From Candidatus Saccharimonadales bacterium (GTDB lineage: Bacteria; Patescibacteriota; Saccharimonadia; Saccharimonadales; EFPC-124): 64,000 nucleotides of DNA. The DNA is taken from assembly GCA_050730875.1 (NCBI GenBank), contig JBOHNX010000001.1, forward strand, positions 141,827-205,826, in the 5' to 3' direction. The first letter of the stretch is position 1, and each line of letters begins with the position of its first letter. Position numbers and translations under genes: made by a program. The notes under the pieces were generated by a model. The model saw only the letters and a program-made list of their open reading frames with translations. It did no database searches and was not told where the DNA came from. Of this stretch, positions 2,945 to 30,107 are shown piece by piece.

Positions 2945-2958
2945 GCTACACTAGTACT

Positions 2959-3873: not shown

Positions 3874-3888
3874 GCGGATGACCCGACC

Positions 3889-4023
3889 GCTGCTTTTCGT
3901 ACTATTCCTTCACAGAGCAAATGTGCCCGCTCTTCCTTAACCAACTGAAAGCCCTGAACTACAGGGTTTCAGTTGGTTACTCCAGAGCTACGATCCTCTG
4001 TGAAGGAATAGTACGAGCGCAGC
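3889..4023. repeat. 135-nt nested inverted repeat (rod-like hairpin)
   Basis: 3898-3917 is perfectly complementary to 3996-4015 (20 bp). The helix is extended by 3889-3893/4019-4023. An inner helix pairs 3929-3933 with 3984-3988. The innermost helix pairs 3938-3956 with 3962-3979 (18 bp, one bulge, 5-nt loop). Confidence 0.85.
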
Positions 4024-4305
4024 ATATCCTGGGGTATGCGGAAGAGGGTAGGGCGGAGGAGCTTTACTTACTAGGAGTCGCAAAGCTAAAAAGCCTACGG
4101 CATCACCCGCTCGATGGATAACTTATTGCTTGTGTTGATTAGCGGCAGAAGCAGACTACTCCGCTGCTCTCTTTTATGTTCTAATTTTGTTCTTGCTTTA
4201 AGTTATAGACCCACTCCAATATCGAAAAAACTATATAAAAATATTAAATTCAAAAAAAGCAAATAGTGTAGGGCGGAGGGTGGTAGGGAGTCGTGAAAAA
4301 ATATT

Positions 4306-4527
4306 ATGAAAATACAAAAAAGCAAATTTGCAAATGCGACTGTGGAAAAGTCAAATTACGACATGGCACGTTTTATGGGGTGCTGCCAGTCGGCTGGCGA
4401 CCTAAGCCGGTCGACAGTACAATACAAGTTTAAATGTAGCGGTGCGCGTAGTGTAATTACAGCCACATTAACGCCAAACTCCCGGAAAACTCCCCTAGTA
4501 AGACGATGTACCAATCATCTTCAGTAA
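4306..4527 (+). CDS. hypothetical small protein (very uncertain; alternative 46-codon GTG frame at 4293..4433)
   Basis: This is the only ORF of at least 60 aa in the 955-bp gap. GGAGG/GGGAG motifs lie upstream (4276-4290). A perfect 11-bp hairpin (4532-4542/4559-4569) follows the stop. No recognisable family. Confidence 0.2.
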   Translation: MKIQKSKFANATVEKSNYDMARFMGCCQSAGDLSRSTVQYKFKCSGARSVITATLTPNSRKTPLVRRCTNHLQ

Positions 4528-4828
4528 AATAATGTAATGTCGTAAAAGATATATTGTGCGACATTACATCTATATTAAACTATGTACACTTTCATCCATC
4601 TTCAGCCACCAATTTTCTTGTGTTTCGTCTATGATTTTTATGGCTCCTCATTCTTCTACTCGCCCGGGCTGCGTTCTCGCTTTAAACGAGTCATTATGGT
4701 TGTTTGATTACTTTATGTAGATTCATTTTGACTGCTAAACCAATTAACAGGGGTCGACCTCTATTATCGAGTATTCGATAGATTGTGTTCGTATTTTGTT
4801 CGTTTTATTTCTGTATGATTATTACTCC

Positions 4829-7525
4829 CTAGCGTAAGCGAAGTACAAAGTCGTTGTCTTGTTGCTCTTGTTGGGGCTGCGGCTGTTGCTGTTGTGGAGT
4901 GGGGTTTTGAGTCTTAGAACCGCCTCGTTTGCGTCCGCGCGAACGGGAACGCTTGCCGCTACCTGGCGTTGCTTGCTGGCCTGATTGTTGCTGTGGAGCG
5001 GCTGGTGCGGGCTGTGGGGGCTTTTGCGTTTGAGCGGCGGGCGCTGTTGTGGGTTGTTTTGATGGTGGCTGTGTCTGTGGGGCAGTAAATCGACCAGACG
5101 CGGCGGGGATGAGAGTTTGTTTAATCACCTTCTGAATTTCGGCCTCAACTTCTGCCCGAGGTCGCGAGTAATGGCGACGTGTGTTTTCGATAATCTGCGG
5201 CGAGTAGTCATTTTGCGCGGCTGGGAGGGTTAGGGTGGTTGCAGAGAACGCCGGTGCCTTCTCTCCCCTAATGACCATGCTAATGACAAAATGTCGGTTG
5301 TGCATTTGCATGAGGTCAGCGGCTTCAAACTGCGGTTCGAACTGCTTAGAAAGCAGTGGCGCATCGTCGGGGCTGACCCGGAAGGAAATGACAGTACCAA
5401 CGTTCCCGAATACGGCATCGCGTACGGTATCGTTCATCTGTGAAATATATTGGTTGGCTACAGTTAGGTTAAGGCCGTATTTACGTGCCTCACTTAAGAT
5501 AGTTGCAAACGAATCGGTCGCGAAGTTTTGGAATTCGTCCACGTACAGGTAGAACGGCTTGCGATCTTCGATGTGCGGAATATCAGAACGGCTCATGGCG
5601 GCCAGCTGGATTTTGGTTACTAGGAACGAGCCCAGCACGGCGGCGTTGTCTTCCCCTACTAACCCTTTGCTCAGGTTCACGATCAAAATTTTGCCTTCGT
5701 CCATGATTTTACGGATGTTAAAAGTGCTTTTTGGCTGGCCAATGATGTTACGGATGATTGGATTAGCAGTAAAGGCACCCACCTTGTTAAGCACTGGGGC
5801 AATGGCTTCGGCAGCGAATTTATCGTTCCAGCTCGCAAATTCTACCGTCCAGAACTGGCGCACTACGGCGTCATCGACATATGTTAGGACCTCGTTGCGG
5901 AACTTTTTATCGGTGAGCATGCGGGTGATATCGAGTAGTGTTGTGTTTGGATAATCCAAAAGCGCTAAGATTGTGTAGCGCAAGATGTATTCCAAACGTG
6001 GCCCCCAACTTTCGCCGAACATGCGTTTTAGGACACCAATAATTTCAGAACTAATATTGTTCTTCATGGCTGGATTGATGACTTCCATCGGGTTGAAGCC
6101 AATCGGGTATGCTGTGTCTGCTGGGTTAAAGTAGATCACATCCTTGGCGCGCGACTGAGGGATAAACCGCAGGTTGTTAATGGCAAAGTCGCCATGTGGA
6201 TCGATAATGGCGAAACCGTGGTTATGGAAGACGTCGCTGAGTGCAAACAGCTCCAACAGACCAGATTTACCAGTACCGGTTTGGCCAATGATATACACGT
6301 GACGGCCGCGGTCTGAACGGTACAGGCCAAATTGCTGGTTAATCCCGCGGAAGTTCGTTAGACCGAACGCACTTATTTCGGCATCGGCCTCGACACCGAT
6401 GACAACTGGCAGTTTTGCAGGTGGTTCGGCTGTTTTTGAGCTTGCCCAGACGATGTTCGGTGTCTCCACGTTGGTGTGTGGTAAGTGGAAGACACTGGCG
6501 AGCTCTTCGATATTTAAAATGTAGCCGCGATCAATAAAGAACCGCGCACGATATTGCGCCAGGCCGTCGGGCGAGAACGAAGAGTTCTTCATCTGGAAGC
6601 CATTCAGGTTCGTACTGTTGAACTGTTTGAACGTACCAACAATCGCTTGCATGCGCAGTCGGGCGGTTTGTTGGCTGTTACCCAAATACGTCAGCCGTAT
6701 TTTTACTTGGTAGCCTAATTTAATGCTCTTCTTCTCTACTTCGGTGATCCGGCCTTTTTCGCGTTCGCTAATTTCTGCCGGGCCACTGCTGCCTTGATTT
6801 TCTGGTGGTTTCCAGAGAGCTTCAAGCGCACGCAGCAAATAATAGCCAAGACCACCGCCGAGGGCAGCACTACTGCTCCCTCCCCCACTCTTCGCACGGG
6901 CTGTGTAGCGACTGGCTTTGCGGTGCCAGTCATCCGAAATTGGGCGCGCCAATACCTGAATCCACATTTCTTCGCCGGTTTCTTCGAGTTTGGCTAGTGT
7001 AGCGGTCACGGCTGCTAAGGGGTCAACCTCGAAGCTCTGGAATGTTTTAATCGGTAGCACTTCGTTATCGATTAATGAAAGTTCAGCGGTATGCACAACC
7101 TGCTGTTTGATATCGCGAGCTGCGTAATCTTCTTCTGCAACATGAATCTGCACAGTTGGATATTGCGCGTAAATTTGGCCTTCAACAAAGTTTTGCAGGT
7201 ATGTCGGCACCCATACGTAAAAGCGTATGCGTTTGTCGATGGCGGCGATTTCAAAGCTGATGTGTTCCTGCAAGCCGCCCTGCGTGGCAAGCTCACGCTT
7301 CGAGCGCAAAATACCGTGCAAACTGGCGAACATTTGCTCGGCTGCCAGTTCTTGCTTCTCGTTTGTACGAGGGATCTCGAGGATTAATAGGGTGTGGTCA
7401 AGATCACGAACCACCTTAGCTCGACGGTTGTTCCGAAGGGCTAAGTAACCAAGGACTGCGGCGATTGGCAGCCAGATGTACCACTTGCTCAGCAAGCCGA
7501 AAATCAACGAGAGCACCACGTCCAT
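4829..7525 (-). CDS. membrane-anchored VirD4/TraG/TraD-like (FtsK-HerA superfamily) ATPase with P/Q-rich C-terminal tail
   Basis: 898 aa. N-terminal TM helix. Walker A YIIGQTGTGKSG. Walker B-like FYLYVDEFQNF. Coupling-protein-like LNLTVANQYISQ. The last ~110 aa are low-complexity P/Q/G/R. Confidence 0.75.
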   Translation of the reverse strand: MDVVLSLIFGLLSKWYIWLPIAAVLGYLALRNNRRAKVVRDLDHTLLILEIPRTNEKQELAAEQMFASLHGILRSKRELATQGGLQEHISFEIAAIDKRIRFYVWVPTYLQNFVEGQIYAQYPTVQIHVAEEDYAARDIKQQVVHTAELSLIDNEVLPIKTFQSFEVDPLAAVTATLAKLEETGEEMWIQVLARPISDDWHRKASRYTARAKSGGGSSSAALGGGLGYYLLRALEALWKPPENQGSSGPAEISEREKGRITEVEKKSIKLGYQVKIRLTYLGNSQQTARLRMQAIVGTFKQFNSTNLNGFQMKNSSFSPDGLAQYRARFFIDRGYILNIEELASVFHLPHTNVETPNIVWASSKTAEPPAKLPVVIGVEADAEISAFGLTNFRGINQQFGLYRSDRGRHVYIIGQTGTGKSGLLELFALSDVFHNHGFAIIDPHGDFAINNLRFIPQSRAKDVIYFNPADTAYPIGFNPMEVINPAMKNNISSEIIGVLKRMFGESWGPRLEYILRYTILALLDYPNTTLLDITRMLTDKKFRNEVLTYVDDAVVRQFWTVEFASWNDKFAAEAIAPVLNKVGAFTANPIIRNIIGQPKSTFNIRKIMDEGKILIVNLSKGLVGEDNAAVLGSFLVTKIQLAAMSRSDIPHIEDRKPFYLYVDEFQNFATDSFATILSEARKYGLNLTVANQYISQMNDTVRDAVFGNVGTVISFRVSPDDAPLLSKQFEPQFEAADLMQMHNRHFVISMVIRGEKAPAFSATTLTLPAAQNDYSPQIIENTRRHYSRPRAEVEAEIQKVIKQTLIPAASGRFTAPQTQPPSKQPTTAPAAQTQKPPQPAPAAPQQQSGQQATPGSGKRSRSRGRKRGGSKTQNPTPQQQQPQPQQEQQDNDFVLRLR

Positions 7526-7597
7526 ATTGCTTATCCCTTATTGTCGCATGGGAACGGCACCCAGCGCAAACAACTCTTTTGCGATAAGGCGCTCGGG

Positions 7598-8647
7598 CTA
7601 TTCTTTGTCTTCTTCTGCCAGTGCATATGTCGCCTTAGCCACCCGCTTAAAGCGCTGTTTGCCCTGGAGGTTGAGCAAGATAGTCGTTTCTTTCACCTGA
7701 CGGTGCTTGAGGACTCGACGAACAATTTCATCACGGTGCAATGGACCACCCTCTTTTTTGAGGATGTCGGTAATGATGTCGGCAACGGTACCCTTCTTAA
7801 AGCCCCAATCCTTGAGTGCGTAAATACCACGGCCAATCAACACAAAACGGCTGTCTTTAATGAGCTCGTTGTGAATAGCCTGGGTTGTAACATCTTTACG
7901 GCGGAAATCAGACTCTTTAATTGACTTCGCGATGTCGCTAAAGTGCATTGGTTTACCGTTTTCTTGTAGGACAACAAAAATTTTGTCGCGGATGTTTTTA
8001 GGGTTAACGGTTGGCCATTTAGTCAGACCCCAGTGGTCCTTAAGGTTGGCAAGCTCTTTGCTAACCTGTGCGAGCGCGCGGACGTGCGACGGGTGGTCGT
8101 GGTCAAGTTTTTGGTGCAGCTGCTCGATTGTCAGCGGTTCACCTTCTTTTTTGATGGTGCCGACAATGCTATCGACGTGCTTCTTGATTTGTGGTTCGTC
8201 GTGATATTCCTTAATGCCTACCGAGTGGTGGTAGCGGTCGCTTTCCTCGACGACAGTTAGGCGCGGTGCTAGTTCGGCAACAAATGCCACGTGAGCACGG
8301 TCGCGCTCGCTTGGCGCTTTGGCGATACGGGCTGCAAGGTCAGATACTTTGGCAACACGGCCAAGGTCATGCAAGTGACGGATAAGGTGTTTTTCGAGAG
8401 TGGTAATGTGTGGCAAGCTCTCTTCCGCGGCCAGTTTTAGGCGGATCATAATTGCCTTTTCCAGCTGGCGCACACGTTCGCGAGTAATACCAAGAAGCTC
8501 ACCAATTTGCTCGAGTGTTTCTTTGCGGTCGTACAAACCAAAACGACGCGCAATGATTTCGCGCTCTCGCTCTCGTTCTACTGTAATAAGGATATCCTTA
8601 ACAGCTGACTGTAAATCCACCGTCGCCGCTTCAGCGGTATCGCTCAT
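7598..8647 (-). CDS. sigma-70 region-4-like HTH protein fused to two HARE-HTH-like domains
   Basis: The segment REIIARRFGLYDRKETLEQIGELLGITRERVRQLEKAIMIRLK resembles sigma70 region 4. Two C-terminal modules end in DSRFVLIGRGIYALKDWG and QRFKRVAKATYALAEE, like the RpoE-delta HARE-HTH. The Met at 8647 has a GGAAAGG RBS (the ORF track starts at 8689). Confidence 0.6.
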   Translation of the reverse strand: MSDTAEAATVDLQSAVKDILITVEREREREIIARRFGLYDRKETLEQIGELLGITRERVRQLEKAIMIRLKLAAEESLPHITTLEKHLIRHLHDLGRVAKVSDLAARIAKAPSERDRAHVAFVAELAPRLTVVEESDRYHHSVGIKEYHDEPQIKKHVDSIVGTIKKEGEPLTIEQLHQKLDHDHPSHVRALAQVSKELANLKDHWGLTKWPTVNPKNIRDKIFVVLQENGKPMHFSDIAKSIKESDFRRKDVTTQAIHNELIKDSRFVLIGRGIYALKDWGFKKGTVADIITDILKKEGGPLHRDEIVRRVLKHRQVKETTILLNLQGKQRFKRVAKATYALAEEDKE

Positions 8648-8841
8648 ATAACTAACCTTTCCGGGGTTATTTTTTGCCTCAATGTTCATATTACTCTAAC
8701 ACAAATTACTATTGGTGTCAAATAACGAGGGTATAAGTTAATTATAGCATCAACTCGACGTTTTAGGTAGTCTCTGATGTGACAGTTTATAACTGTGGAT
8801 AAATAGTATAAGCGTAAGAGGTATGTAGGAAAATTATATAG

Positions 8842-9253
8842 AAAACGGGCTCTCGCGGTTGCAAGAGCCCTTATGGAGGGATGGCACCGGCCTAGGAAAC
8901 GCAGGCGGGCTCGGTCTCCCGAGGTGCGTACATCTAGGCCGGTGCCTGGCGTCGGCTGCAGTCTCCCTCAAGCCTGCCGACGCCGCGGTTCTCGTCGTCC
9001 CAATGGGCCCGAACATGACGAGAACCAGTGAGGCTGCCCATGAGTCCCCCCAGGCCCCAAGACAACCTCACGAAAGGACCACGCCGCAACGCTCGGGGGT
9101 GCAGCTGCGGCGTGGTCCAGCCTTTAGCCCACCGTAGCGCGCCGCGTCCCTGGGGAGGCCGTGCCTTCCGGATGAAGGTACGTCGCGTACGCTACGGTGG
9201 GGGCTTGTATCATTCGGCTGATTGCAGCCGAACAAGTTCACTATTAAGGTGTA
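8842..9253. ncRNA. unassigned GC-rich highly structured element (candidate ncRNA, strand unresolved)
   Basis: Seven or more long helices: 8883-8895/8934-8946, 8948-8956/8976-8984, 8987-8998/9015-9026, 9028-9033/9066-9071, 9076-9087/9107-9118, 9128-9139/9190-9201 and 9161-9168/9174-9181. A possible pseudoknot pairs 9048-9054 with 9149-9155. Two G.U pairs favour the + strand. A promoter (TTGATG-17-TATTAT, 9260-9288) and a terminator hairpin with U run (8847-8870) favour the - strand. No credible ORF. Confidence 0.55.
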
Positions 9254-9301
9254 CTATAAATAATAACTTAGTTTAGTAATTTCATCAACAGACCACCTCT
9301 G

Positions 9302-11602
9302 TTATTTGCGGGTGCGACGAGAACGAGCACTCTTGGCTGGCGCTTTGGCGAGGAGTTCTTTGCATTGCGCTAATGTGAGTTGCGCTGGTTCGATGTCTTT
9401 TGGCACTTTGACATTCTTTTTGCCATCGGTGATGTAAGGACCAAAGCGGCCGTTGAGGACTCTAATCCCCTCTTCACTGAAGTCGTGGATGGTCATTTTG
9501 GCACGTTTTTCGGCGTCTTCGGCTAAGAGCTGTTTAGCGGTTGCAAGGTCTATGGTCAGAGGGTCGTGCCCCTTAATTGAGACGTAACGTTTAGCGACGC
9601 GAACGTATGGTCCGAAACGACCAATGTTAGCCTCGATTTCTTCGTTGTTGTCGGTCAGGCCAACGACTCGGGGCAATTTAAGCAATTCGAGTGCTTGTTC
9701 GAGCGTAATTGTGTCGAGTGAGATTTCGGGCGGAATGGTAGCGAAGGTTGGTTTTTCTTCCTCCTCAGCTTCCCCTACCTGTACCATGGGGCCGTAGCGG
9801 CCAAAGCGGGCAGATACTTTACGACCGGTTTTGGGATCGGTACCAAGGGTTCGAGATTGCATAGCCTCGGCACGACTGACGCCTTCAGACTTTTCGACTG
9901 TTTTATGGAATGGGTCGTAGAATTCTTTAAGCATTTGCTGCCACGCTAGTTTGCCATCGGCGATGCCATCGAACTCTTCTTCGACTGTTGCGGTGAAGTC
10001 GTAGTCGATGATGTGTGGGAAGTGCAGTACCAAGAAGTCGGTTACGACTTTGCCGATGTCGGTGGGTACTAACTTGCCCTTATCGGTAGGAATTGGCTCC
10101 ATGGCCTGCTTGCGCTCAACTGCGCTAGCAGCTAGTGACAGGCGCACCACTTCCCGCTCGCCGCCAACGACGTCGGCTTTTTCAACATAGCCGCGATCTT
10201 GGATGGTGCTGATAGTTGGCGCGTAGGTACTTGGACGTCCAATGCCGAGTTCTTCGAGTTTGCGTACCAGGCTAGCTTCGGTGTAACGTGCGGGTGCCCT
10301 GGCGTAGGTCTGTTCGGCTTCGGCACTAACCAAATTGAGTTTGTCGCCGGTTTTTACCTCTGGCAATAAGCCTTCTTCTTTGGCTTCTTTACCTTCGGCA
10401 TAGACTTTTAAGAAACCGGGGAATTCGACAATCTCGCCCTTGGCTTCCAGCACGTCTTTGCTTTCGCTTAGGCCAATGGTGATAGTAGTTTTTTCGATCT
10501 TGGCTGGCGCCATTTGCGATGCGACGCTGCGCTTCCAAATAAGTTCGTAGAGTTTTTGTTGCTGGGCGTCATCGCCGGCTTGGCGGACGCTGGCGTTAGT
10601 GGGGCGAATAGCTTCGTGAGCTTCTTGGGCGCCGGCACTTTTGGTCGTGAATTTTCGGGTTTGCAGGTAGTTTTCGCCATACTCTTTTTTAATGAGCTCG
10701 GCCATAGCGCCAATTGCCAGGCTGCTGAGGTTAACCGAGTCGGTACGCATGTAGGTGATGTGACCATTTTCGTACAAGCGCTGTGCGAGCATCATAGTTT
10801 GCTTTGGTGAAAAACCAAGTCGGCGCGATGCTTCTTGTTGCAGTGTGCTGGTGGTAAACGGTGCGCTTGGGCTGCGCGTACCAGGCGTTTTTTCAACGTT
10901 GGCGATGCTGCATTCGCTCTTAACAAGTGCTTCGAGGAATGCCTGAGCTTCTGCCTCGCTTTCGTATTTAACCGGTGCCTCTGCTTTCAATTCCGTGCCG
11001 TCTTCAAGTGTCAGAAGTGCATTTACTTTAAAGCTGGTCTTGGCTTCGAAACCTTCAATCTCGCGTTCGCGCTCAACAATTAAACGCACTGCCACAGATT
11101 GCACACGGCCAGCGCTTAAACCTGTGCGGACTTTTTTCCAGAGGACCGGGCTCAGTTCGTACCCCACAATGCGGTCTAAAATACGACGCGCTTGTTGCGC
11201 GTCTACTAATTTAAGGTCAATGCTGCGAGGATTCTTTACCGCCGCTTCGATTGCCGGTTTGGTAATTTCATGAAAGACAATGCGCTTTGTGTTTTCGGGT
11301 TTGAGCTTCAGCGCTTCGCTTAAATGCCAAGCAATTGCTTCCCCTTCGCGGTCTTCATCGCTTGCGAGCCAGATGATATCGGCAGTTTTAGCTGCAGCGC
11401 GCAGTTCGGCAACCGTTTTCTTTTTATCTGGGCTTACTTCGTACTTTGGTTCGAAATTATTGGCGATATCAACGCTCATCCCCTTTTTAGGAAGGTCGCG
11501 GATGTGCCCAAAGCTGCTTTTAACGACAAAATCCTTGCCTAAATACTTGGCAATGGTTTTGGCTTTGGCCGGTGACTCTACAATGACTAGGTTCTTGCTC
11601 AT
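9302..11602 (-). CDS. topA: DNA topoisomerase I
   Basis: Toprim start MSKNLVIVESPAKAKTI...GHIRDLP. Also has SDEDREGEAI, a catalytic-region YITYMRTDS motif, and a C-terminal repeated RFGPY module. The likely start is 11602 (the ORF track starts at 11656). Confidence 0.95.
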   Translation of the reverse strand: MSKNLVIVESPAKAKTIAKYLGKDFVVKSSFGHIRDLPKKGMSVDIANNFEPKYEVSPDKKKTVAELRAAAKTADIIWLASDEDREGEAIAWHLSEALKLKPENTKRIVFHEITKPAIEAAVKNPRSIDLKLVDAQQARRILDRIVGYELSPVLWKKVRTGLSAGRVQSVAVRLIVEREREIEGFEAKTSFKVNALLTLEDGTELKAEAPVKYESEAEAQAFLEALVKSECSIANVEKTPGTRSPSAPFTTSTLQQEASRRLGFSPKQTMMLAQRLYENGHITYMRTDSVNLSSLAIGAMAELIKKEYGENYLQTRKFTTKSAGAQEAHEAIRPTNASVRQAGDDAQQQKLYELIWKRSVASQMAPAKIEKTTITIGLSESKDVLEAKGEIVEFPGFLKVYAEGKEAKEEGLLPEVKTGDKLNLVSAEAEQTYARAPARYTEASLVRKLEELGIGRPSTYAPTISTIQDRGYVEKADVVGGEREVVRLSLAASAVERKQAMEPIPTDKGKLVPTDIGKVVTDFLVLHFPHIIDYDFTATVEEEFDGIADGKLAWQQMLKEFYDPFHKTVEKSEGVSRAEAMQSRTLGTDPKTGRKVSARFGRYGPMVQVGEAEEEEKPTFATIPPEISLDTITLEQALELLKLPRVVGLTDNNEEIEANIGRFGPYVRVAKRYVSIKGHDPLTIDLATAKQLLAEDAEKRAKMTIHDFSEEGIRVLNGRFGPYITDGKKNVKVPKDIEPAQLTLAQCKELLAKAPAKSARSRRTRK

Positions 11603-22394: not shown

Positions 22395-22808
22395 ATGCAA
22401 ACTCGGCTCAACCCGTACCTTAGTTTTCGCGATAACACTCGCGAGGCGATGGAATTTTATAAGACTGTGTTTGGCGGCGAGCTCACACTGAGCCCATATA
22501 AGGAATTCAACGCGTCGCAGGATCCAAGCGAGGATGACAAAATTATGCACGCTATGTTGGAAGCCAAAAACGGTATTACTTTTATGGCGGCGGACACGCC
22601 AAACGCCATGCAGTACACTCCTGGCACCAACATGAGCATGTCGCTCAGCGGCGACAACGAAGAAGAGCTCCGCGGCTATTGGGACAAGCTTTCCGAAGGT
22701 GCCACTATTACCATGCCGCTCGAAAAAGCTCCTTGGGGCGACACGTTTGGTATGCTAACCGACAAATTCGGTATTCAGTGGATGGTAGACATCGCGCCAA
22801 AAGCTTAG
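22395..22808 (+). CDS. VOC/PhnB-like (glyoxalase-fold) protein
   Basis: The N-terminus LNPYLSFRDNTREAMEFYKTVFGG and the C-terminus WGDTFGMLTDKFGIQWMV are typical of the PhnB/YjdN family. Confidence 0.7.
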   Translation: MQTRLNPYLSFRDNTREAMEFYKTVFGGELTLSPYKEFNASQDPSEDDKIMHAMLEAKNGITFMAADTPNAMQYTPGTNMSMSLSGDNEEELRGYWDKLSEGATITMPLEKAPWGDTFGMLTDKFGIQWMVDIAPKA

Positions 22809-22825
22809 GCACGTATAATTGAGAT

Positions 22826-23407
22826 ATGGCTCAGCCATACCGGCCGATGCAGCCAACCAAAACCGAGAGTCTGCCAGCTGGCAGTGAGTGGGTTTATGAG
22901 CCAAAACTTGATGGATACCGAATGCTCGCCTACACGTCGCTGCGCCGCATAGTACTGAGGACCCGATACGGCAACAACTTCACCGACCGCTATCCGCTAG
23001 TCGTCCAGCAATTGCCAGCTGCGCTGGGTGGACGCGAAGCTGTGTTAGATGGCGAAATGGTCGGATTTGACGAATCTGGCCAGCACAACATCCGGATTTT
23101 ACAGAGAAAAACCGCTCGGGTTGTGTACTTTGTCTTCGATCTTCTAGCGATTGATGACGTACCAGTAATTAATAGGAGATGGGAAGACAGGCATGGTTTG
23201 CTGGAAGAAATGTTTAAACGTCAGCCAAACGTAGATCTTTGCCCATATTTTGACGACCGCGACGCCGTGCTGCAAGCCACCGAGAAGCTAAATATGGAAG
23301 GCGTTGTCGCTAAGAAAACTCAGTCAATTTACAAACCAGGCAAACGTTCAAAAGACTGGCTGAAGTTTAAATTCCAGCCGCACCAAGGCAGAGCCTGGCG
23401 ACGGTAG
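22826..23407 (+). CDS. ATP-dependent DNA ligase adenylation (NTase) domain only, OB-fold domain absent
   Basis: Motif I YEPKLDGYR, motif III FVFDLL, motif IV EGVVAK and motif V DWLKFK are present. The ORF ends about 10 aa after motif V. Confidence 0.65.
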   Translation: MAQPYRPMQPTKTESLPAGSEWVYEPKLDGYRMLAYTSLRRIVLRTRYGNNFTDRYPLVVQQLPAALGGREAVLDGEMVGFDESGQHNIRILQRKTARVVYFVFDLLAIDDVPVINRRWEDRHGLLEEMFKRQPNVDLCPYFDDRDAVLQATEKLNMEGVVAKKTQSIYKPGKRSKDWLKFKFQPHQGRAWRR

Positions 23408-23794: not shown

Positions 23795-24274
23795 CTATCT
23801 TTTCTGTTTTTTGTCTTCGGGGTGAATGTCAACAGCTATCATTTCTACAATATGTGCGCTTCTGTCAATAAAAAAGAAGCCGCGATATGAACCTGCGTCA
23901 AATTCACTTAATTCAGCGTCGGGTGTTAGGCCGGAGGCGTATTTTTTATAGTGATTAGCCACTTTTACTTTTTTAACATCAAACGGAAGGTTGTACACAT
24001 CTTGTTCAGAAGAGCAGCGGCACATATTCTTATAGGCTTCAATCACTTTTCTTAGAGGAGCAGTCTTGGGTATTGTCTTACCTTGGCATAAATCATCTCT
24101 ATAAAATCTATGACCGATAGTAAAATTTTTCTCACCCTCGTCTTGGATGCTGTTTGACTGTGCGACGCTAGCGGGTAGCCTGACTGATGGGTCAGTCGCT
24201 TTGCGAGCGACTTCTTTGATTTCTTTTTGTAGTTTTCTACGTTCAGGCTTTGACAGTTTTGAGTAATCGGGCAT
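23795..24274 (-). CDS. putative toxin partner of Panacea antitoxin; C-terminus RelE/ParE-like
   Basis: It overlaps the upstream DUF4065 gene by 32 nt. The C-terminal GSYRGFFFIDRSAHIVEMIAVDIHPE resembles the RelE/ParE 'GDYRIIY..D....V.I..IGHR' strand pattern. Confidence 0.45.
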   Translation of the reverse strand: MPDYSKLSKPERRKLQKEIKEVARKATDPSVRLPASVAQSNSIQDEGEKNFTIGHRFYRDDLCQGKTIPKTAPLRKVIEAYKNMCRCSSEQDVYNLPFDVKKVKVANHYKKYASGLTPDAELSEFDAGSYRGFFFIDRSAHIVEMIAVDIHPEDKKQKR

Positions 24275-24713
24275 AGAAGCTCTTCATCAGATCAGGGTCA
24301 ATGGTGATACTGGTGCGCTCGTCTGTTTCGGCGTTTCCTCTAGCGGCTAGCCAGGGCTCTTCGTTGTGGGTCAAGGCTTCTAGATAGTCGGCATCAAACT
24401 TCCCATAAATTGCCCAGATATCTTCTAAGACAGCTTGTTCCTTAGCAGCTAGCTTGCCGACTTGCGGCTCTTCTGCGATGGTGTTGTAGCTATATTTTTT
24501 GTATTTGCTATAGAGAGTTCTTATGGCCGGTCCATGTATCCAAGCCTCTATAGGGTCAGTAAACAGGGGGTTGTCGTTAAATACTAAGTTCCACGCTTGG
24601 GCGTAGTAAACGAGTTTCTGTAGCTTTTTATTAGTTATCACCTTGTCTGCATCGTGAGAGGTTGCAATAAAATAATTAGCCACCCTCTGTAATTTTTCGC
24701 TTGGCTCATTCAT
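24243..24713 (-). CDS. DUF4065 / Panacea-domain (SocA/GepA-like) antitoxin
   Basis: ITNKKLQKLVYYAQAWNLVFNDNPLFTDPIEAWIHGPAIRTLYSKYKKY is the hallmark DUF4065 core. Confidence 0.75.
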   Translation of the reverse strand: MNEPSEKLQRVANYFIATSHDADKVITNKKLQKLVYYAQAWNLVFNDNPLFTDPIEAWIHGPAIRTLYSKYKKYSYNTIAEEPQVGKLAAKEQAVLEDIWAIYGKFDADYLEALTHNEEPWLAARGNAETDERTSITIDPDLMKSFYARLLKTVKA

Positions 24714-24936: not shown

Positions 24937-25260
24937 ATGAACAAAAAATCTTCGCTTATTATTCAACGCATTCTTCAGGTGATTGTCATCATCGCTTCTG
25001 TGGCGATGTTTCTAGCGGTTCTTTCGCCTTTGCTTGCATTTTTTGCCGCTTCCAGCGCAATGGGAGGTCATCCCCCGGGATATCTTAAGCCGCTGGTCTA
25101 CTTAGTGCCTATAACTCCTTATATTCTCCTAGCGGGCGCAGTAGCGTCGATTGTTTTGACTCTCATAAGACCAAAAGATGAGCTCACTACTCCTTTGCGT
25201 ATTTGGGGAGTTGTCATGTGTTTGCTAGCCTTTGGGCTGTTTACTTACTTTAAGTTCTAG
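24937..25260 (+). CDS. small membrane protein (3 predicted TM helices)
   Basis: 107-aa hydrophobic ORF. It is followed by the bidirectional terminator at 25270-25301. Confidence 0.5.
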   Translation: MNKKSSLIIQRILQVIVIIASVAMFLAVLSPLLAFFAASSAMGGHPPGYLKPLVYLVPITPYILLAGAVASIVLTLIRPKDELTTPLRIWGVVMCLLAFGLFTYFKF

Positions 25261-25321: not shown

Positions 25322-27382
25322 TTACTGAACGGTCAGCAACCAGTCGGCCGCATGTTTTGTCCAAATGGACGCATACTGATAATGCGCACAGTTAGATCCA
25401 TCCGACAAGAAACATTGCTCGAAACCATCCCACGACGTAAAGTTACATATCGGGTCATTGGCTAGACAGTAGCTGGCTGTTTTTCCTGTCAGAGAGGGAG
25501 GCAGTTCGCGTGGGGGCAACCCCCCTGGCCCGGCCGGAGACGACCAAATACCATACAAGCTGGTATCGTATGTTCCTCGATTGAACGTGGATTGCGGGTT
25601 GAATCGAGGATCACCGAAAAGGACTATTCCGTGTATCTGAGCCTGGATCTCTGTAGGGAGCGCAGACGCTACATCTGCAGCGACGTGAGCTCCCTGACTG
25701 TAGCCGGCCAGAATCACATCCGTGGCTGGGCAGTCTTTGTGCAACTGCGTCAGATAACCCGTCAAGGCGTCCACGCCCGCTTTCACGCTTTCGCTGTAAT
25801 CAGCGGGGTAGCTCCTCTGGTAGGGATCAACTGGAACCGCCGGGTATGCCACTGCAGCAACCTGAAGCCCGCTGAGGCCGCCGGCAACCAGCTGATTCTT
25901 GAGATCCTGGATGGTTCTGCCGACTCCCTCGTATTCGAACGGGTTTTCCCCCGAACCACGCACTCCAACGAGCTGAGTGGTCGGGCATGTTACGGGGGTT
26001 GGCCCTATGCCCAGGGTAGCGCTTCTTGGGTAATCCAACCCCAGTCGTTGCAGCGGCACTGCGTACAAACTCTGAGTGCGACCCTGACAGCTAGAAGTGT
26101 CGGCGTTGGTGCAATATCCGATCGACAAGTACAACTTGTCCTGGGACAGAGCCCAGCTTGCGCCTCGGGCAAACCTCGTCGTCTGTTGAAAGTCGAACCA
26201 GTTCGTGTCGAACTGAGCAACCCTGCTCAAGTCTGGCCGTTGCAGTGTGAATTGCCAGCCACGCAGGATCTTGCTACCGCTCCTCCAGTTGTACTGCCTT
26301 GTGAGCAAGATGTTTCCATTTCCATCCGCTCTCACGATTGCCGGCAGAAAACTATTGGAGGTAGAGCCCAGATCGGTGAAGGTCCGATAATCCTCAGTAG
26401 TGCTCAGCGTCGAGCTGCGAACAGTGTAGCTGCTGTCGTTTGGCGTGTAAGAGAGAAGGACCGGTTGACCCGCGTCGTTGTACGCTACAACTGTTGCTCC
26501 ACCATTCGTGGTTGCAGTGGTGCTCGCGATGTTCCAGCACGACGACCAACTGAACTTGAAGATCCTGCCTGTTGTGGGAGTGTACTCTTGGAAGTTGATC
26601 GTTTTGTATCGGTTGACGCATGTGCCGCTAGAGCTCTGGAAGTCTTCCTGGAACACACGCCCATCGATATTCGCTGCACGAATCCAACCGCCCGAGCCCG
26701 CCTGTGAGAGATTGGTTGGCATGTAGTCGGATCCGTCATGCTTGATGTACCGAATGGTGCGGAGTGTGTTCTGCAGAATGACACCATACTGGTAAGCGCT
26801 GAACCATGTAACAGTTGCCTTGCCGAGGTTTTTCTCGAACAAAATACGACCAGTTGATGGGTCGATTTTGTTGAGGAAGTTGCCCGTCTGGCATTTGTTG
26901 TCGACAGAAACTGCGTACAGGTATCCGTCGACACCAACTGTCATCGATTTGAGTGCGCGGTCGACAAGCCCGTATGTGCTGCAGTACGATCGAAGGCTAA
27001 TCTCCCACGTCAACGTGGTGCCACGATATGCAACTACGGTATAACGCCCGCTCCTGTTGTCGGTATAACCGAATACCGTCCCATCTTTTGCGACGGCGCC
27101 CTGCGACCAGCACACGTATGTGTACTTTCCGGTGACCTGGGGCACAGTTGCGCTGATCGTGCCGTCTGGTGCGAAAGTCTTGAAGGCGGTGGAACCGGAG
27201 CTGGCGCAGTTGGCAGCGACAACGCTACCGTTTGCAGTCGACATGACGTAGTCGCTCTGCAAGTCGCTGGTGTCCTGTGGCCACGCGGGACTTACGGCTT
27301 CCGCAGGACTAATAGCCCAAAACGATTGCAGGAGCATGACGAGCACCGGGATGAGCAATTTGCGGCTTAACCCTTGCATCAC
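25322..27382 (-). CDS. secreted two-domain protein: ~430-aa unknown (beta-rich) N-domain + C-terminal cutinase-family serine esterase
   Basis: Signal peptide MMQGLSRKLLIPVLVMLLQSFWAISPAEA. The cutinase domain spans aa ~466-675 (LVGVRGSGE). The nucleophile elbow is GYSQGA (Ser codon at 25697-25699). Also has NDPIC and CAHYQY. A GGAAGGTGA RBS is present. GC-richer than its neighbours. Confidence 0.75.
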   Translation of the reverse strand: MMQGLSRKLLIPVLVMLLQSFWAISPAEAVSPAWPQDTSDLQSDYVMSTANGSVVAANCASSGSTAFKTFAPDGTISATVPQVTGKYTYVCWSQGAVAKDGTVFGYTDNRSGRYTVVAYRGTTLTWEISLRSYCSTYGLVDRALKSMTVGVDGYLYAVSVDNKCQTGNFLNKIDPSTGRILFEKNLGKATVTWFSAYQYGVILQNTLRTIRYIKHDGSDYMPTNLSQAGSGGWIRAANIDGRVFQEDFQSSSGTCVNRYKTINFQEYTPTTGRIFKFSWSSCWNIASTTATTNGGATVVAYNDAGQPVLLSYTPNDSSYTVRSSTLSTTEDYRTFTDLGSTSNSFLPAIVRADGNGNILLTRQYNWRSGSKILRGWQFTLQRPDLSRVAQFDTNWFDFQQTTRFARGASWALSQDKLYLSIGYCTNADTSSCQGRTQSLYAVPLQRLGLDYPRSATLGIGPTPVTCPTTQLVGVRGSGENPFEYEGVGRTIQDLKNQLVAGGLSGLQVAAVAYPAVPVDPYQRSYPADYSESVKAGVDALTGYLTQLHKDCPATDVILAGYSQGAHVAADVASALPTEIQAQIHGIVLFGDPRFNPQSTFNRGTYDTSLYGIWSSPAGPGGLPPRELPPSLTGKTASYCLANDPICNFTSWDGFEQCFLSDGSNCAHYQYASIWTKHAADWLLTVQ

Positions 27383-27560
27383 TTCACCTTCCGAAGGCTA
27401 GGGGGATGTTAAAGAACGAGCTGTTGTTACAGCCCCTTGCAGATCCGAAGAACCGAGTTAATTATACGTAACTTTGGGTAATGAGCAACAGAGATTAATT
27501 GATCACGTGGCTATTTGCTAGAAATCAAAACCACCCACGAGGGGTGGCTTGGATGTTCTA

Positions 27561-27635
27561 TGGTGACCCTATGGGGAATCGAACCCCAGTTACCAGGATG
27601 AGAACCTGGCGTCCTAACCGCTAGACGATAGGGCC
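27561..27635 (-). tRNA. tRNA-Glu (anticodon CUC), CCA encoded
   Basis: 75-nt cloverleaf GGCCCUA/UAGGGUC. Anticodon loop UUCUCAU. T-arm UGGGGUUCGAUUCCCCA. A terminator hairpin lies at about 27528-27545 on the - strand. Confidence 0.92.
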
Positions 27636-28180: not shown

Positions 28181-28564
28181 CTACTCAGCTTTTTGGAGAG
28201 AGCCGATGATGTCGAGTAGTTTGCTGGGGGTTATATCGGCTTTAATAAGATAGCCGTCGGCTTTACTTTCCATTGCCATGCGCGATTCTTCGTCTTGGCT
28301 GAAGTTGGTTAGTACTAAGATGCGTGAATGCGGCACGAGGTCTTTATCGCCACGCAAGGCTTTTAGGATGTCGCTGCCGTGCTTTTCGGGCAACAAAATG
28401 TCGAGCAAAATTAGGTCGTACTGCTTTTCTAGTGCGGCTTTGAGGCCGGCTTCGCCATTTGTAACTAGATCTACCTGGTACCCAGCGTTGCGCAGGCTCC
28501 GGGCGTACATTTCGCCGATAAATAGGTCGTCTTCGATACAGAGAATTGTTGAAATTTGTGCCAT
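28181..28564 (-). CDS. single-domain (CheY-like) response regulator
   Basis: ILCIEDDLFI...LILLDILLPEKHG...LTNF...KADGYLIK are receiver motifs. Confidence 0.85.
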   Translation of the reverse strand: MAQISTILCIEDDLFIGEMYARSLRNAGYQVDLVTNGEAGLKAALEKQYDLILLDILLPEKHGSDILKALRGDKDLVPHSRILVLTNFSQDEESRMAMESKADGYLIKADITPSKLLDIIGSLQKAE

Positions 28565-28568
28565 AAAT

Positions 28569-30107
28569 CTACCTGCTAATCATCGCGTGGTTTTTAATCC
28601 ACCCTTCCGTGCGCTGGGTAATATCTTTTTCCTCATTATTACCGCTTTTTAGTTTGTCTGCAACGCTTGCGTAGGTTGGAACGGTAAAGCCAAAGGTCGA
28701 GCCCTCCCCTTCCTTAGAGCGTACCCAAATGGTGCCGCCATGGGATTCAACTATGGTTTTACAGATGTAGAGTCCTAGCCCAGTGCCCGAAACGGTCTGT
28801 TTAGAGCGGTGCGAACGGTAAAAACGATTAAACAGATTACTAACGACTGAGGCGGGCATGCCGATGCCGCTATCTTGCACAGTAACTTCGACAAATTTTT
28901 CCTTTGGCGTGGCACTAATGACCACTTCCCCGCCCTCGTGGCTATATTTAATGGCGTTGTCGATAAGGTTAGTCAGCACTTCGCTTAAGCTGCTGCGGTC
29001 GGCTGCAATGGTTGGGATTTCGGGCGGAATGTGGAAGCTGAGGCGGCGGTTTTGGGTTTTGGCGCGTAGGGCGAGGTCTGGGACCAGGGTTTCAATAACA
29101 TCGAGTATCTTTTCTTCGTGCAGGTGCACCTTAAGCGTGTGGCGGTCGTAGCGCGAGACGTTAAGGATGTTGTTAACGTAGCCAGAAAGTCGCTCGGCCG
29201 ATACTTGCAATCGATCGATGAGCGCTTGCTGATCGTCGGTAAGTTGGCTCCCTAACTCCTGCTTGAGCACCTCTAAATAGCCGCGAATGACGGTAATTGG
29301 GCCGCGCAACTCGTGCGCTGCCAGAGCGATAAAGTCCATGTCTTCTTGATCGTCGGCGTACTGCGCGGTGCGGTCGAACGCTACAAGTACGGCTTCGACG
29401 CCGGCGTTGTCATTCTTTTGGTAGTAGCCGGCGACGTCGAAGATGCGGCGACCTTCTTCGCCAGGTACTTTATCGGCCACGCGAATCCATACGTGACTAT
29501 CGCGTACTTTGTTGGCTTGGCAGTCGGCCAGCCATTTGGCGACGTCGTCGTTTTGTTCGAATATAAGGTCGAGCGCGTAGGTGCCATCTGGCGTGGCGCT
29601 GGCTGGTGCGGTTGAGTTAGCGTAGACTACCTTGCCGTCTTGGCCAATGGCTATCACACCGGCTGGGATGCTATCCACAATGTGCCGAAAGAAATCTGTT
29701 TGTGGAGATGTTTTAGCCGGCTGTTTGCCGTCTTCCGGGTATGATGCCACGGCAAGTTCATACACCGTTTGTACCATCTCTTTCAGGCCGGAAGCCGTAA
29801 AACGTTTGGCTCTAATGTCTGGCGGTGGCGTGACCACCGGGTCTTTCGATACATGCGCGATTGCTTGCGACAGCACTTTAAGCGGTTCGCTGGCGCGCTT
29901 AAATAGCATCGGCGCCACAATAGCGTTAATAATTACCAAGGCGCTGAGGCCTAGCGCGAAGGCAAGCAGCGGCTCGAGCCTCAGGACATCCCAGAATACC
30001 CAGGCGACGGTGCCCGCAGCAATTGCGCTTAAAATTTGCACCAGCATAAAAAACGGGAGCGTCGCATGGCGATATCGCTCAAAATACTCGTGGATTTTTA
30101 CTGCCAC
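28569..30107 (-). CDS. sensor histidine kinase
   Basis: H-box FIALAAHELRGPITVI, N-box NLIDNAIKYS and G-boxes DSGIGM...GTGLGLYICK. Confidence 0.88.
   Translation of the reverse strand: MAVKIHEYFERYRHATLPFFMLVQILSAIAAGTVAWVFWDVLRLEPLLAFALGLSALVIINAIVAPMLFKRASEPLKVLSQAIAHVSKDPVVTPPPDIRAKRFTASGLKEMVQTVYELAVASYPEDGKQPAKTSPQTDFFRHIVDSIPAGVIAIGQDGKVVYANSTAPASATPDGTYALDLIFEQNDDVAKWLADCQANKVRDSHVWIRVADKVPGEEGRRIFDVAGYYQKNDNAGVEAVLVAFDRTAQYADDQEDMDFIALAAHELRGPITVIRGYLEVLKQELGSQLTDDQQALIDRLQVSAERLSGYVNNILNVSRYDRHTLKVHLHEEKILDVIETLVPDLALRAKTQNRRLSFHIPPEIPTIAADRSSLSEVLTNLIDNAIKYSHEGGEVVISATPKEKFVEVTVQDSGIGMPASVVSNLFNRFYRSHRSKQTVSGTGLGLYICKTIVESHGGTIWVRSKEGEGSTFGFTVPTYASVADKLKSGNNEEKDITQRTEGWIKNHAMISR

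Follow-up and report, generated by a model that had tools for sequence, protein, structure and literature searches.

A predicted secreted cutinase-fold esterase joined to an undescribed beta-propeller in Candidatus Saccharimonadales

Here we describe a predicted secreted, two-domain esterase encoded in a 64,000-nucleotide stretch (hereafter the window) of the genome of a very small, parasitic soil bacterium, Candidatus Saccharimonadales. As judged from its sequence, the C-terminal domain is a cutinase-fold esterase with apparently intact catalytic residues. The N-terminal domain is modelled with high confidence as a roughly eight-bladed beta-propeller and belongs to an undescribed domain family that has no Pfam or NCBIfam model. 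The larger family to which the protein belongs mostly joins the propeller to an SGNH hydrolase, and the window protein is a domain-swapped form of it. We tentatively favour a role as a propeller-targeted lipolytic esterase that is secreted and acts on the envelope of an actinobacterial host. The domain identities, catalytic residues, propeller fold, family architecture and distribution, and a conserved neighbouring gene are observed in sequences and models, whereas secretion, binding by the propeller, the substrate class and the function of the neighbour are inferred. The gene and its immediate surroundings contain the following features, with coordinates given in the window.

25322..27382, minus strand: propeller-cutinase reading frame, 686 aa from a GTG, stop included in the span
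27296..27382, minus strand: putative Sec-type signal peptide, aa 1-29, identified by eye, with cleavage predicted between AEA and VSP
26003..27295, minus strand: beta-propeller module of about 8 blades, each with four strands, aa 30-460
26024..26035, minus strand: DYPR motif that closes the propeller, aa 450-453
25334..25987, minus strand: cutinase-fold serine esterase domain (PF01083, CE5-like), aa 466-683
25952..25954, minus strand: oxyanion-hole Ser477 in GVRGSGE, from alignments
25697..25699, minus strand: nucleophile Ser562 in GYSQG (AGYSQGAH), followed by Gln563 as second oxyanion residue
25454..25456, minus strand: catalytic Asp643 in LANDPICNF, between Cys639 and Cys646, from alignments
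25382..25384, minus strand: catalytic His667 in CAH (NCAHYQY), from alignments
27461..27466, minus strand: exact TATAAT hexamer, 75 nt ahead of the reading frame
27483..27488, minus strand: weak -35 element, TTGCTC, with a 16-nt spacer to the TATAAT
27528..27550: terminator-like hairpin of a tRNA-Glu, ahead of the TATAAT in the reading direction of the esterase gene
24937..25260, plus strand: small membrane protein of 107 aa with three hydrophobic segments, convergent with and just downstream of the esterase gene

An earlier, sequence-only reading had called this reading frame a cutinase on the strength of GYSQG, NDPIC, CAHYQY and paired cysteines, and all of these were present when the coordinates were checked. 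An ATG at 27379, one codon past the GTG and preceded by GGAAGGTGA, is probably the true start. The resulting 685-aa version is protein P0001, deposited at NCBI as 'cutinase family protein [Ca. Saccharimonadales]'; the cutinase identity is already in the NCBI naming, and the N-terminal 430 aa are the new part. The protein begins with MQGLSRK, which leads into a hydrophobic core and the AEA/VSP site, and a PAxA motif is aligned in every sequence in an alignment of 8 full-length orthologues. By inspection, secretion would proceed through this Sec signal peptide. The gene could possibly have its own promoter at 27461..27466, where the promoter scan made no call.

The earlier reading named a missing PF01083 hit as grounds for its refutation, yet the C-terminal domain matches this family strongly: the score is 93.6 bits (E=1.7e-26), where the cutoff is 25.9, and the match covers aa 466-683 and HMM positions 2-170 of 173. 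Profile matches to CE5/cutinase structures and Rv3802c have E values of 1e-24 to 1e-21, and Foldseek gave target-normalised TM scores of 0.62-0.77 to acetylxylan esterases (AXEs), cutinases and Rv3802c, a likeness at the level of the whole fold. In the full-length model the domain is of moderate confidence (pLDDT 50-87). The putative triad lines up with the CE5/cutinase structures in sequence and fold: Ser and Asp align with their counterparts in 4psc, 1qoz and 1bs9, while His667 lies just past the aligned stretch and was assigned from its position and conservation. Both triad (Ser562, Asp643 and His667) and cysteines are invariant in the 8 full-length orthologues (45-51% identity) and likewise among more distant actinobacterial cutinases. 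Within the oxyanion motif GSGE, Gly476 and Glu479 are invariant and Ser477 nearly so, and Gln563 is invariant; we take Ser477 and Gln563 to be the equivalents of cutinase Ser42 and Gln121. The predicted cysteine pairs of the domain are C466/C551, C639/C646 and C657/C665, with the invariant C466, C551, C639 and C646 aligned to cysteines of AXEs and cutinases in the sequence alignment only. A conserved insertion of about 45 aa (aa ~594-639) follows the pattern FNP...GT...G.W...L..R. Among named proteins, those closest to the domain are actinobacterial (Svornostia, Streptomyces and Mycobacterium), in keeping with the earlier expectation as to the phylum and not as to its restriction to mycolate-bearing members.

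The 430 or so residues before this domain, rich in Thr, Ser, Gly and Tyr, had been described as lacking a recognised motif, and indeed neither Pfam nor NCBIfam matched them at E<=1. The guess that they form a beta-propeller is borne out by an AF2 model (pLDDT 94, pTM 0.92) with ~32 strands grouped in fours. Foldseek with this model retrieved propeller folds only, and these matches are generic (TM 0.35-0.53, with 10-13% identity to lectins); the neighbours include BamB, the Photorhabdus PLL/PHL sugar-binding lectins, CylK and strictosidine synthase. Membership in the PQQ/BamB-like, WD40, NHL, PD40, FG-GAP and SSL repeat families was rejected, none of them matching the propeller at E<=1; across 16 family members the best Pfam repeat match was SSL_N, seen in 2 members at E=0.012. 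Pfam likewise showed no CBM or lectin signature in the protein.

Conservation was assessed in two alignments, of 82 and 16 sequences. Eight cysteines are conserved in the propeller (C59, C91, C134, C164, C255, C282, C424 and C432). Among the motifs of the module, DYPR is the best conserved; its Pro452 is invariant in 82/82 aligned sequences, and the motif is retained even in proteins with no catalytic domain after the propeller. Conserved positions across the 82 sequences are mainly Gly, Cys or aromatic residues, and few are polar (D353, Y418, Y451 and R453). Since so few polar residues are conserved, the propeller would serve as a scaffold or in binding rather than in catalysis, most likely as a targeting or binding module. 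A catalytic propeller resembling CylK or strictosidine synthase was judged unlikely for the same reason.

We defined the family as a signal peptide and a propeller of ~420 aa ending in (M/L)DYPR(G/S), joined directly to a serine esterase, and the window protein has all of these parts. A profile search recovered 162 propeller relatives at E<=1e-3, with 83 at E<=1e-10, nearly all of one architecture; a word-indexed search with a broad profile of the N-terminal domain added just P0159-P0163. Among 155 classified propeller proteins, 123 have an SGNH domain after the propeller and 15 have a cutinase as partner, two of these in reversed order, with the cutinase N-terminal to the propeller. Some members are the propeller alone. 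The propeller-SGNH sister form is common in Saccharibacteria metagenome-assembled genomes (MAGs). Against structures, its SGNH domain matched a phospholipase A1 from Streptomyces albidoflavus (4hyq, E=4e-29), a lipase from S. rimosus (5mal, E=4.5e-24) and, weakly, the S. scabies esterase 1esc; no carbohydrate-esterase SGNH structures were among its matches at E<0.01. Because two unrelated esterase folds sit on one scaffold, the propeller may recognise an ester substrate shared by both.

The propeller-cutinase architecture forms about 11 clusters at 90% identity, the only named copy being that of the window (Ca. Saccharimonadales). The earlier statement that cutinases are not characteristic of reduced-genome bacteria was therefore too strong, this family being small yet real. 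Two peptide patterns found no cutinase-fused form in 185,579 GTDB species genomes, and the 64-kb window holds no paralogue. Our literature search found no description of a Saccharibacteria cutinase or of a propeller-cutinase or propeller-SGNH family. Named propeller carriers are Saccharibacteria MAGs, Amycolatopsis, Streptomyces, Kribbella and Lentzea, along with two otherwise-named MAGs, and actinobacterial members occur at no fewer than three places (at least 3) in the propeller tree. One name seen among the members of the family clusters is a 'Ca. Acidoferrum' MAG. Judging by record names, soil MAG projects and soil actinomycete isolates are the origin of many relatives. The family is also found in free-living Actinobacteria and is not an epibiont device per se.

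A membrane protein of ~100 aa is kept at the convergent downstream position in 6/6 cutinase-type loci examined. An HMM built from the other 5 loci had a sole match among the 422 reading frames of the window, the frame at 24937..25260 (E=7.8e-13), and Pfam placed the 107-aa product in no family above cutoff. It could be a partner or an immunity protein. Directly after SGNH-type genes, three further kinds of small membrane protein recur in both phyla. In the loci examined, the esterase gene has no operon partners besides this convergent neighbour. Upstream of the esterase gene, the window and the locus of the closest orthologue (L086) each have a receiver-domain gene, which in L086 is the directly adjacent one; it is absent from the other loci. 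In Streptomyces, the gene belongs to a low-GC element that also encodes a serine recombinase, a Replic_Relax protein and a type IV coupling protein, the last resembling a window reading frame; this Streptomyces/Amycolatopsis element is a hint that genes may have passed between Saccharibacteria and Actinobacteria. The window gene itself is set among housekeeping genes with no obvious island. Recent transfer into this genome was rejected, as composition deviates only mildly (GC 55% vs 51% for the window; GC3 63.5% vs 51-61% in other genes).

Under the lipolytic reading, the signal peptide would be cleaved and a disulfide-stabilised propeller of ~8 blades (aa 30-460) would target or bind the substrate. 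The cutinase-fold domain (aa 466-683) would then cleave an ester through Ser562-Asp643-His667, with Ser477 and Gln563 forming the oxyanion hole. The enzyme may be a (phospho)lipase or acyl-esterase directed at the envelope of the actinobacterial host, with its lipids or lipoglycans as substrate. Cleavage could supply an epibiont unable to make lipids with fatty acids or lysolipids, weaken the host surface, or both, and the adjacent small membrane protein could act as an anchor or self-protection factor. We lean towards lipids because the SGNH partner resembles phospholipase A1 and lipase and because the nearest named cutinases are actinobacterial, including mycobacterial cutinase-like proteins. 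The link to a host is drawn from the named propeller carriers, which are Saccharibacteria and Actinobacteria genera, plus the two otherwise-named MAGs. To our knowledge, Actinobacteria is the phylum of all cultured Saccharibacteria hosts. A rhizosphere Saccharibacterium is unable to make fatty acids (PMC6031116), and a 2024 PNAS perspective describes Patescibacteria as having no lipid synthesis and states that no mechanism by which they take up or break down lipids has been identified (PMC11665869).

Against the lipolytic reading, the best fold matches are CE5 acetylxylan esterases, and the lectin neighbours of the propeller fit glycan binding equally well. The protein may instead be a CE5-like deacetylase whose lectin-type propeller binds a glycan from which the enzyme removes O-acetyl groups, the leading alternative, though one we regard as somewhat unlikely; its proposed targets are O-acetylated peptidoglycan, cell wall or exopolysaccharide of the host, and plant hemicellulose in soil. 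The top structural matches of the C-terminal domain are the acetylxylan esterases 1bs9, 1qoz and 2axe (target-normalised TM 0.68-0.77), acetylxylan esterase profiles match at E values of 3e-22 and 2e-20, the long insertion that follows the GDP motif is present in these enzymes too, and JGI labels orthologue P0008 'acetylxylan esterase'. The Photorhabdus PLL/PHL lectins among the fold neighbours of the propeller would suit a sugar ligand, though lectin matches of this kind are generic (TM 0.4-0.5, 10-13% identity) and the protein lacks a CBM or lectin Pfam signature. Modular architectures are common among carbohydrate esterases, and xylan is deacetylated by both cutinase-fold (CE5) and SGNH (CE2/3/12) enzymes, so that the domain swap fits deacetylation too. 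What speaks against it is that the SGNH domain in the propeller-SGNH sister form resembles phospholipase A1 and lipase, not carbohydrate esterases, and that no glycoside hydrolase or sugar-uptake genes adjoin the gene in the window or the orthologue loci examined. Lipid-acting and acetyl-glycan-acting cutinase-fold enzymes are not separable by sequence or fold comparison.

The conserved small membrane protein raises a further possibility, that of an interbacterial toxin damaging the membrane or wall of competitors or hosts, with the membrane protein as cognate immunity and the pair mobile between Actinobacteria and Saccharibacteria. This we consider quite unlikely, and it overlaps with the lipolytic host-envelope reading rather than excluding it. 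The constant neighbour in all six cutinase-type loci, the three further kinds after SGNH-type genes in both phyla, the Streptomyces element with its recombinase, coupling and Replic_Relax proteins, and the scatter of Actinobacteria over the propeller tree are all consistent with such a pair. However, beyond the Sec signal the protein has no secretion-system marker or toxin-delivery domain, the small proteins carry no known immunity-family signature, the convergent orientation means that the small protein is not co-transcribed with the esterase, and the window gene has housekeeping genes around it rather than an obvious island. An enzyme for plant polyester (cutin or suberin), or a general short-chain esterase, would scavenge carbon in soil or rhizosphere with no host bacterium involved. 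Membership of PF01083, the soil origin of many relatives (by record names) and the weak match of the SGNH partner to 1esc, an esterase linked to suberin, would agree with this. It nevertheless seems very unlikely: true fungal cutinases are more distant from the domain than are AXEs and the cutinase-like proteins of Actinobacteria, and neither the exclusive pairing of propeller and esterase nor the conserved membrane partner is explained. Saccharibacteria also have minimal catabolism and no known route for cutin monomers (see also PMC11665869).

The lipolytic host-envelope reading can be extended to a dedicated effector system, in which the propeller would dock on an actinobacterial surface lipid or glycolipid, a swappable SGNH or cutinase head would free acyl chains for the lipid auxotroph, the membrane protein would protect or anchor, and the cassette would be exchanged with hosts on conjugation-type elements. 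Taken as a whole, we think this unlikely; if true, it would be the first lipid-acquisition machinery identified in Patescibacteria, together with a traceable gene flow between parasite and host. The esterase family, with >100 relatives, is a testable candidate for lipid acquisition in Patescibacteria, and the exchange of two unrelated esterase folds on one scaffold is useful for substrate inference and enzyme engineering. If the protein is an ordinary acetyl esterase, the finding shrinks to a new accessory module on a known enzyme class.

Among known systems, phage lysin B (mycolylarabinogalactan esterase) offers an analogy, being a cutinase-like esterase with which a parasite of Actinobacteria cuts an envelope ester, as the window protein might; unlike the window protein, it has no propeller, and nothing observed here points to a host that bears mycolates. 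A specific relationship to LysB was rejected: 1 in 50,697 phage records matched, the LysB of Gordonia phage Evaa (38.7% identity over 87 aa, E=1e-4, 38% of the domain), with only the nucleophile region aligned. Prolyl-oligopeptidase/acylaminoacyl-peptidase structures (3o4h, 1ve6), retrieved by the full-length model, similarly combine an N-terminal propeller with a C-terminal alpha/beta-hydrolase. They differ in belonging to another alpha/beta-hydrolase family, at a TM of about 0.3, an rmsd of 18-20 Å and no sequence similarity, and propellers of this type have 7 blades and gate the peptidase site. The likeness is one of modelled architecture, an analogy and not membership.

The catalytic domain can be compared with the Penicillium purpurogenum AXE II (1bs9/1g66/2axe), the Trichoderma reesei AXE (1qoz) and the cutinases of T. 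reesei (4psc) and Fusarium solani (1cex). It shares with them the PF01083 fold, the GYSQG elbow, an Asp in D-P-x-C flanked by two cysteines that would form a clamp, a late His, an oxyanion Ser in G-S/T-x-E, and an N-terminal Cys that would pair with the Cys before the elbow. Identity is 19-25%, however, and the window protein is bacterial, with an extra conserved pair of cysteines (C657/C665) and the 430-aa propeller; fungal cutinases and AXEs stand alone or carry a CBM1. The mycobacterial cutinase-like proteins (Culps), which are lipases, phospholipases or thioesterases, have the cutinase fold and the insertion after the GDP motif as well (Rv3802c/Culp6, 5w95, E=2.6e-21; MSMEG_6394, 3aja, E=7e-19; target-normalised TM about 0.6), and cutinases from Mycobacterium and Mycolicibacterium are among the named proteins closest to the domain. 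Orthology to Culp6 was rejected, the NCBIfam equivalog NF050160 scoring 32.8 bits against a cutoff of 570 with only aa 505-575 matching; the window protein has no Culp6-type membrane anchor, and Culps have no propeller. The propeller-SGNH proteins (P0044 at locus L004; Amycolatopsis L005, L012 and L014; Streptomyces L015) carry an SGNH hydrolase in place of the cutinase, and their small neighbours are of different families, but they share with the window protein a homologous propeller (E down to 1e-47), the layout of signal peptide, propeller, DYPRG and esterase, and a small membrane protein encoded alongside.

The gene at window 25322-27382 encodes a precursor of secreted type that joins a propeller to an intact cutinase-fold domain. 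The ORF listing gives 686 aa from a GTG start. An ATG at 27379, one codon past the GTG, is preceded by GGAAGGTGA, and the 685-aa product from this ATG is identical to P0001, the window protein as deposited at NCBI under the title 'MAG: cutinase family protein [Candidatus Saccharimonadales bacterium]', on a contig of 556 kb. The N-terminus runs from MQGLSRK through a hydrophobic core to AEA/VSP, with PAxA aligned there in every orthologue, and by inspection it was read as a predicted Sec signal peptide. Both the ORF and this N-terminus bear out the sequence-only reading, which had placed a secreted-type cutinase-family protein here. The gene and its surroundings are as follows.

4829-7525, minus strand: 898-aa TrwB/TraG-type type IV coupling protein (Pfam)
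22395-22808, plus strand: glyoxalase-family protein
22826-23407, plus strand: 193-aa ATP-dependent DNA ligase adenylation-domain protein, adjoining the glyoxalase-family protein
23795-24274, minus strand: 159-aa ORF without family
24243-24713, minus strand: SocA/Panacea-domain antitoxin, overlapping the 159-aa ORF
24937-25260, plus strand: convergent membrane protein of 107 aa with three hydrophobic segments, its end 62 nt away from the stop codon of the esterase
25322-27382, minus strand: esterase
27561-27635: tRNA-Glu, upstream of the esterase gene
28181-30107, minus strand: histidine kinase and stand-alone receiver protein, upstream of the esterase

Ordinary chromosomal genes surround the esterase in the window, among them topoisomerase I, DprA, Pth, Der, and two two-component systems. 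The ligase is very short and lacks the usual OB-fold domain, and 23795-24713, two genes away from the esterase, probably holds a toxin-antitoxin pair. A terminator-like hairpin lies between the tRNA-Glu and the esterase gene. A perfect TATAAT hexamer with a weak -35 is found 75 nt 5' of the ORF, a site at which the promoter scan made no call. The tRNA-Glu and a 151-aa ORF without assigned function separate the kinase and receiver genes from the esterase. In L086, the locus of the closest orthologue, a 129-aa receiver protein (301-690) is directly upstream of the esterase, and regulation may therefore be linked.

The sequence-only reading had proposed an hmmscan with PF01083, which gave a strong match on aa 466-683 (93.6 bits vs a cutoff of 25.9, E=1.7e-26; Pfam scan). 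Single-sequence phmmer matched CE5 enzymes, cutinases, and the mycobacterial Rv3802c and MSMEG_6394 structures. A profile built from 13 sequences made these matches stronger: the T. reesei CE5 cutinase (E 8.5e-24), T. reesei acetylxylan esterase (AXE; E 3.1e-22), Rv3802c (E 2.6e-21), and AXE II (E 2.4e-20). S477 (GSGE), S562 (GYSQG), Q563, D643 (NDPIC), and H667 (CAH) are conserved in orthologues together with C466, C551, C639, and C646. The cutinase hallmarks claimed earlier are all present: GYSQG, the Cys as putative pairs, the NDPIC Asp, and a late His in CAH. The same nine positions are conserved in actinobacterial cutinases of 31-36% identity, and C657 and C665 are invariant among orthologues. 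Judged by its residues and fold, the C-terminal domain is an esterase of the cutinase fold with its active site intact. Taken alone, this domain has its nearest named relatives in Actinobacteria (Svornostia, Streptomyces, Mycolicibacterium, Mycobacterium; 28-33% identity). Orthology to Culp6 (Rv3802c) was ruled out at 32.8 bits vs a cutoff of 570, and a relationship to phage LysB was represented by one partial match (E=1e-4).

For the N-terminal 430 aa, zero Pfam or NCBIfam models matched at E<=1, in agreement with the earlier statement that no motif was recognisable. The full-length model from nine sequences was mediocre (pLDDT 72). Modelled alone from an 82-sequence alignment, the N-domain reached pLDDT 94 and pTM 0.92 and is all-beta, with ~32 strands in eight groups of four. 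Foldseek against the PDB returned propellers only (TM 0.35-0.53, identity 10-13%), including CylK, BamB, the Photorhabdus PLL/PHL lectins, strictosidine synthase, and WD40 proteins; it found no close structural relative there, though the fold class is clear. On this model the domain is a predicted beta-propeller, as had been guessed, and its family is undescribed. Positions conserved across the family are chiefly Gly, aromatics, and eight Cys (C59, C91, C134, C164, C255, C282, C424, C432), which would fit an extracellular protein; D353 and Y418 are also conserved. Since there is no conserved polar cluster, the propeller would act in binding or as a scaffold rather than in catalysis. It closes with the conserved motif (M/L)-D-Y-P-R-(G/S) at aa 449-454.

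A search of 1.84 billion representative proteins with the N-domain profile gave 162 relatives at E<=1e-3, of which 83 reach E<=1e-10. Nearly all of the 162 are 700-800 aa long with the propeller at residues ~30-460. Partner domains were classified in 155 propeller proteins by local HMMs:

SGNH domain: 123 of 155
cutinase domain: 15 of 155
propeller-only or truncated: 8 of 155
truncated or unassigned: 9 of 155

Pfam identified Lipase_GDSL_2 in 8/10 scanned relatives, and also in P0069, a long relative with several domains; it identified cutinase in P0014, P0034, P0059, and P0091. P0034 and P0091 have the reversed order, cutinase N-terminal and propeller C-terminal, and end in ...MDYPRAAALK, so the DYPR motif belongs to the propeller and not to a linker. 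In a rough neighbour-joining propeller tree (no support values), cutinase-bearing members fall in three or more places among the SGNH-bearing members, which suggests repeated domain replacement on the propeller scaffold. The SGNH partner matched phospholipase A1 (PLA1; 4hyq, E=4e-29), S. rimosus lipase (5mal, E=4.5e-24), and S. scabies esterase (1esc, E=1.6e-6), with zero carbohydrate-esterase structures at E<0.01; by these matches it is of the lipolytic Streptomyces type.

The named members of this propeller-esterase family are Saccharibacteria and filamentous Actinobacteria. Fusion to a cutinase is the rare form, with about 11 clusters at 90% identity, and two peptide patterns did not find it among 185,579 species-representative genomes. 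In those genomes the SGNH-fused form with full propeller is present in about 15 Saccharibacteria/Saccharimonadales MAGs, two copies sharing one complete 1.26-Mb chromosome, and in two MAGs carrying other labels. Among isolates it occurs in three Amycolatopsis and in Kribbella, Streptomyces, and Lentzea; Streptomyces L017, the seventh locus from Actinobacteria, was matched by tblastn and not by the propeller HMM. One Amycolatopsis protein is 40% identical to a Saccharibacteria protein across the full length, and actinobacterial members fall at three or more places in the same rough, unsupported tree.

Base composition of the genes is intermediate in both lineages. Saccharibacteria genes are consistently GC-richer than their flanks (window gene, L004, L006, L010, L011, L016; 0.58 vs 0.47 in L011, 0.55 vs 0.51 in the window), which could reflect foreign origin or a Gly/Ala/Thr/Ser-rich protein. 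In Streptomyces and Amycolatopsis (L012, L014) the gene sits in a several-kilobase stretch of 55-63% GC whose edges climb to 70-76% or 66-71%, respectively. In Streptomyces L015 (low-GC element at 1990-11326) and L017, further genes within the stretch code for a large serine recombinase, a type IV coupling protein, and proteins of the DUF3846 and Replic_Relax families; with this gene content the stretch resembles an integrative element of mobilisable or conjugative kind. The element's coupling protein is 30% identical to window ORF 4829-7525 (E=1e-50), which fits gene exchange between the two phyla in either direction. ORFs similar to the latter also occur in L028 (Saccharimonadales) and L045 (Patescibacteria). 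In L016, ORF 2416-2829 is Replic_Relax-like (43% identical to the Streptomyces protein across 95 aa) and lies directly upstream of a propeller-SGNH gene of Saccharibacteria, a hint that the gene has a mobile context in the epibiont too.

The small membrane neighbour of the esterase is conserved. Homologues of the 107-aa protein hold the same convergent position in 5/5 orthologue loci examined (L086 2883-3197, L085 6096-6440, L087 6097-6387, L084 6480-6773, L002 2833-3186), although the esterases share only 45-51% identity, and an HMM from these five loci matched only ORF 24937-25260 among 422 window ORFs (E=7.8e-13). Apart from this gene, no neighbourhood was conserved across the cutinase-type loci examined. 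Just past it in L085, downstream of the orthologue P0004, a 100-aa ORF with a PF01083 match (6545-6847) may be left over from a second copy of the cutinase. In both phyla, what follows an SGNH-type gene is a small membrane protein gene from one of three recurrent families:

type A: ~105 aa, YPxYxxxCG...FC...AGF
type B: ~170 aa, four TM segments, VHCxGxFG...SC; L004, L008, L009, L010, L011, L012, L014, L015
type C: ~215 aa; L005, L006, L013
also listed for these three families: L010 7407-7775; L018 7225-7563 and 7594-7992; L013 8126-8458; L019, L023, L027, L033

None of the small membrane proteins beside either gene type reaches the gathering cutoff of any Pfam family.

We infer that the propeller targets the enzyme, which it would bring to its substrate. 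One scaffold accepts two unrelated esterase folds, and the substrate class is therefore probably common to the SGNH and cutinase forms. Actinobacterial cutinase-like proteins are lipolytic; because of this, and because the main partner is of the PLA1/lipase type, we tentatively favour an ester of a host-envelope lipid or lipoglycan as the substrate, a reading that is plausible and well short of secure. The actinobacterial genera carrying the family are not known to have mycolic acids, and for this reason a mycolate target is not claimed. One Saccharibacterium in culture lyses Gordonia and needs the mycolic-acid layer of that host (PMC11880426). If true, action on such a lipid or lipoglycan ester would serve the known lipid auxotrophy of Patescibacteria, for which no means of acquiring lipids has been identified (PMC11665869; PMC6031116).

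The main rival, a CE5-type deacetylase with a lectin-like propeller, is possible if doubtful, and draws on the Foldseek ranking of the full-length model, where acetylxylan esterases come first (target-normalised TM 0.68-0.77), followed by Rv3802c (0.62) and then fungal cutinases. The ~100-aa convergent membrane protein may be a partner or an immunity protein; a toxin-immunity pair, which overlaps with the host-envelope reading, seems unlikely. Scavenging of plant polyesters explains the least among these readings and is improbable.

The cutinase identity is already in public annotation. In Pfam, NCBIfam, the PDB, and the literature searched, we found no description of the propeller family, of how it pairs almost exclusively with SGNH or cutinase heads, of its spread over epibiont and host phyla, of the Streptomyces mobile-element context, or of the conserved membrane neighbour. 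The propeller-cutinase would represent a modular secreted esterase carrying a new accessory module. Within its esterase domain, a conserved insertion of ~45 aa (aa 594-639, FNP...GT...G.W...L..R) lies at the same place as an insertion in AXE and Rv3802c.
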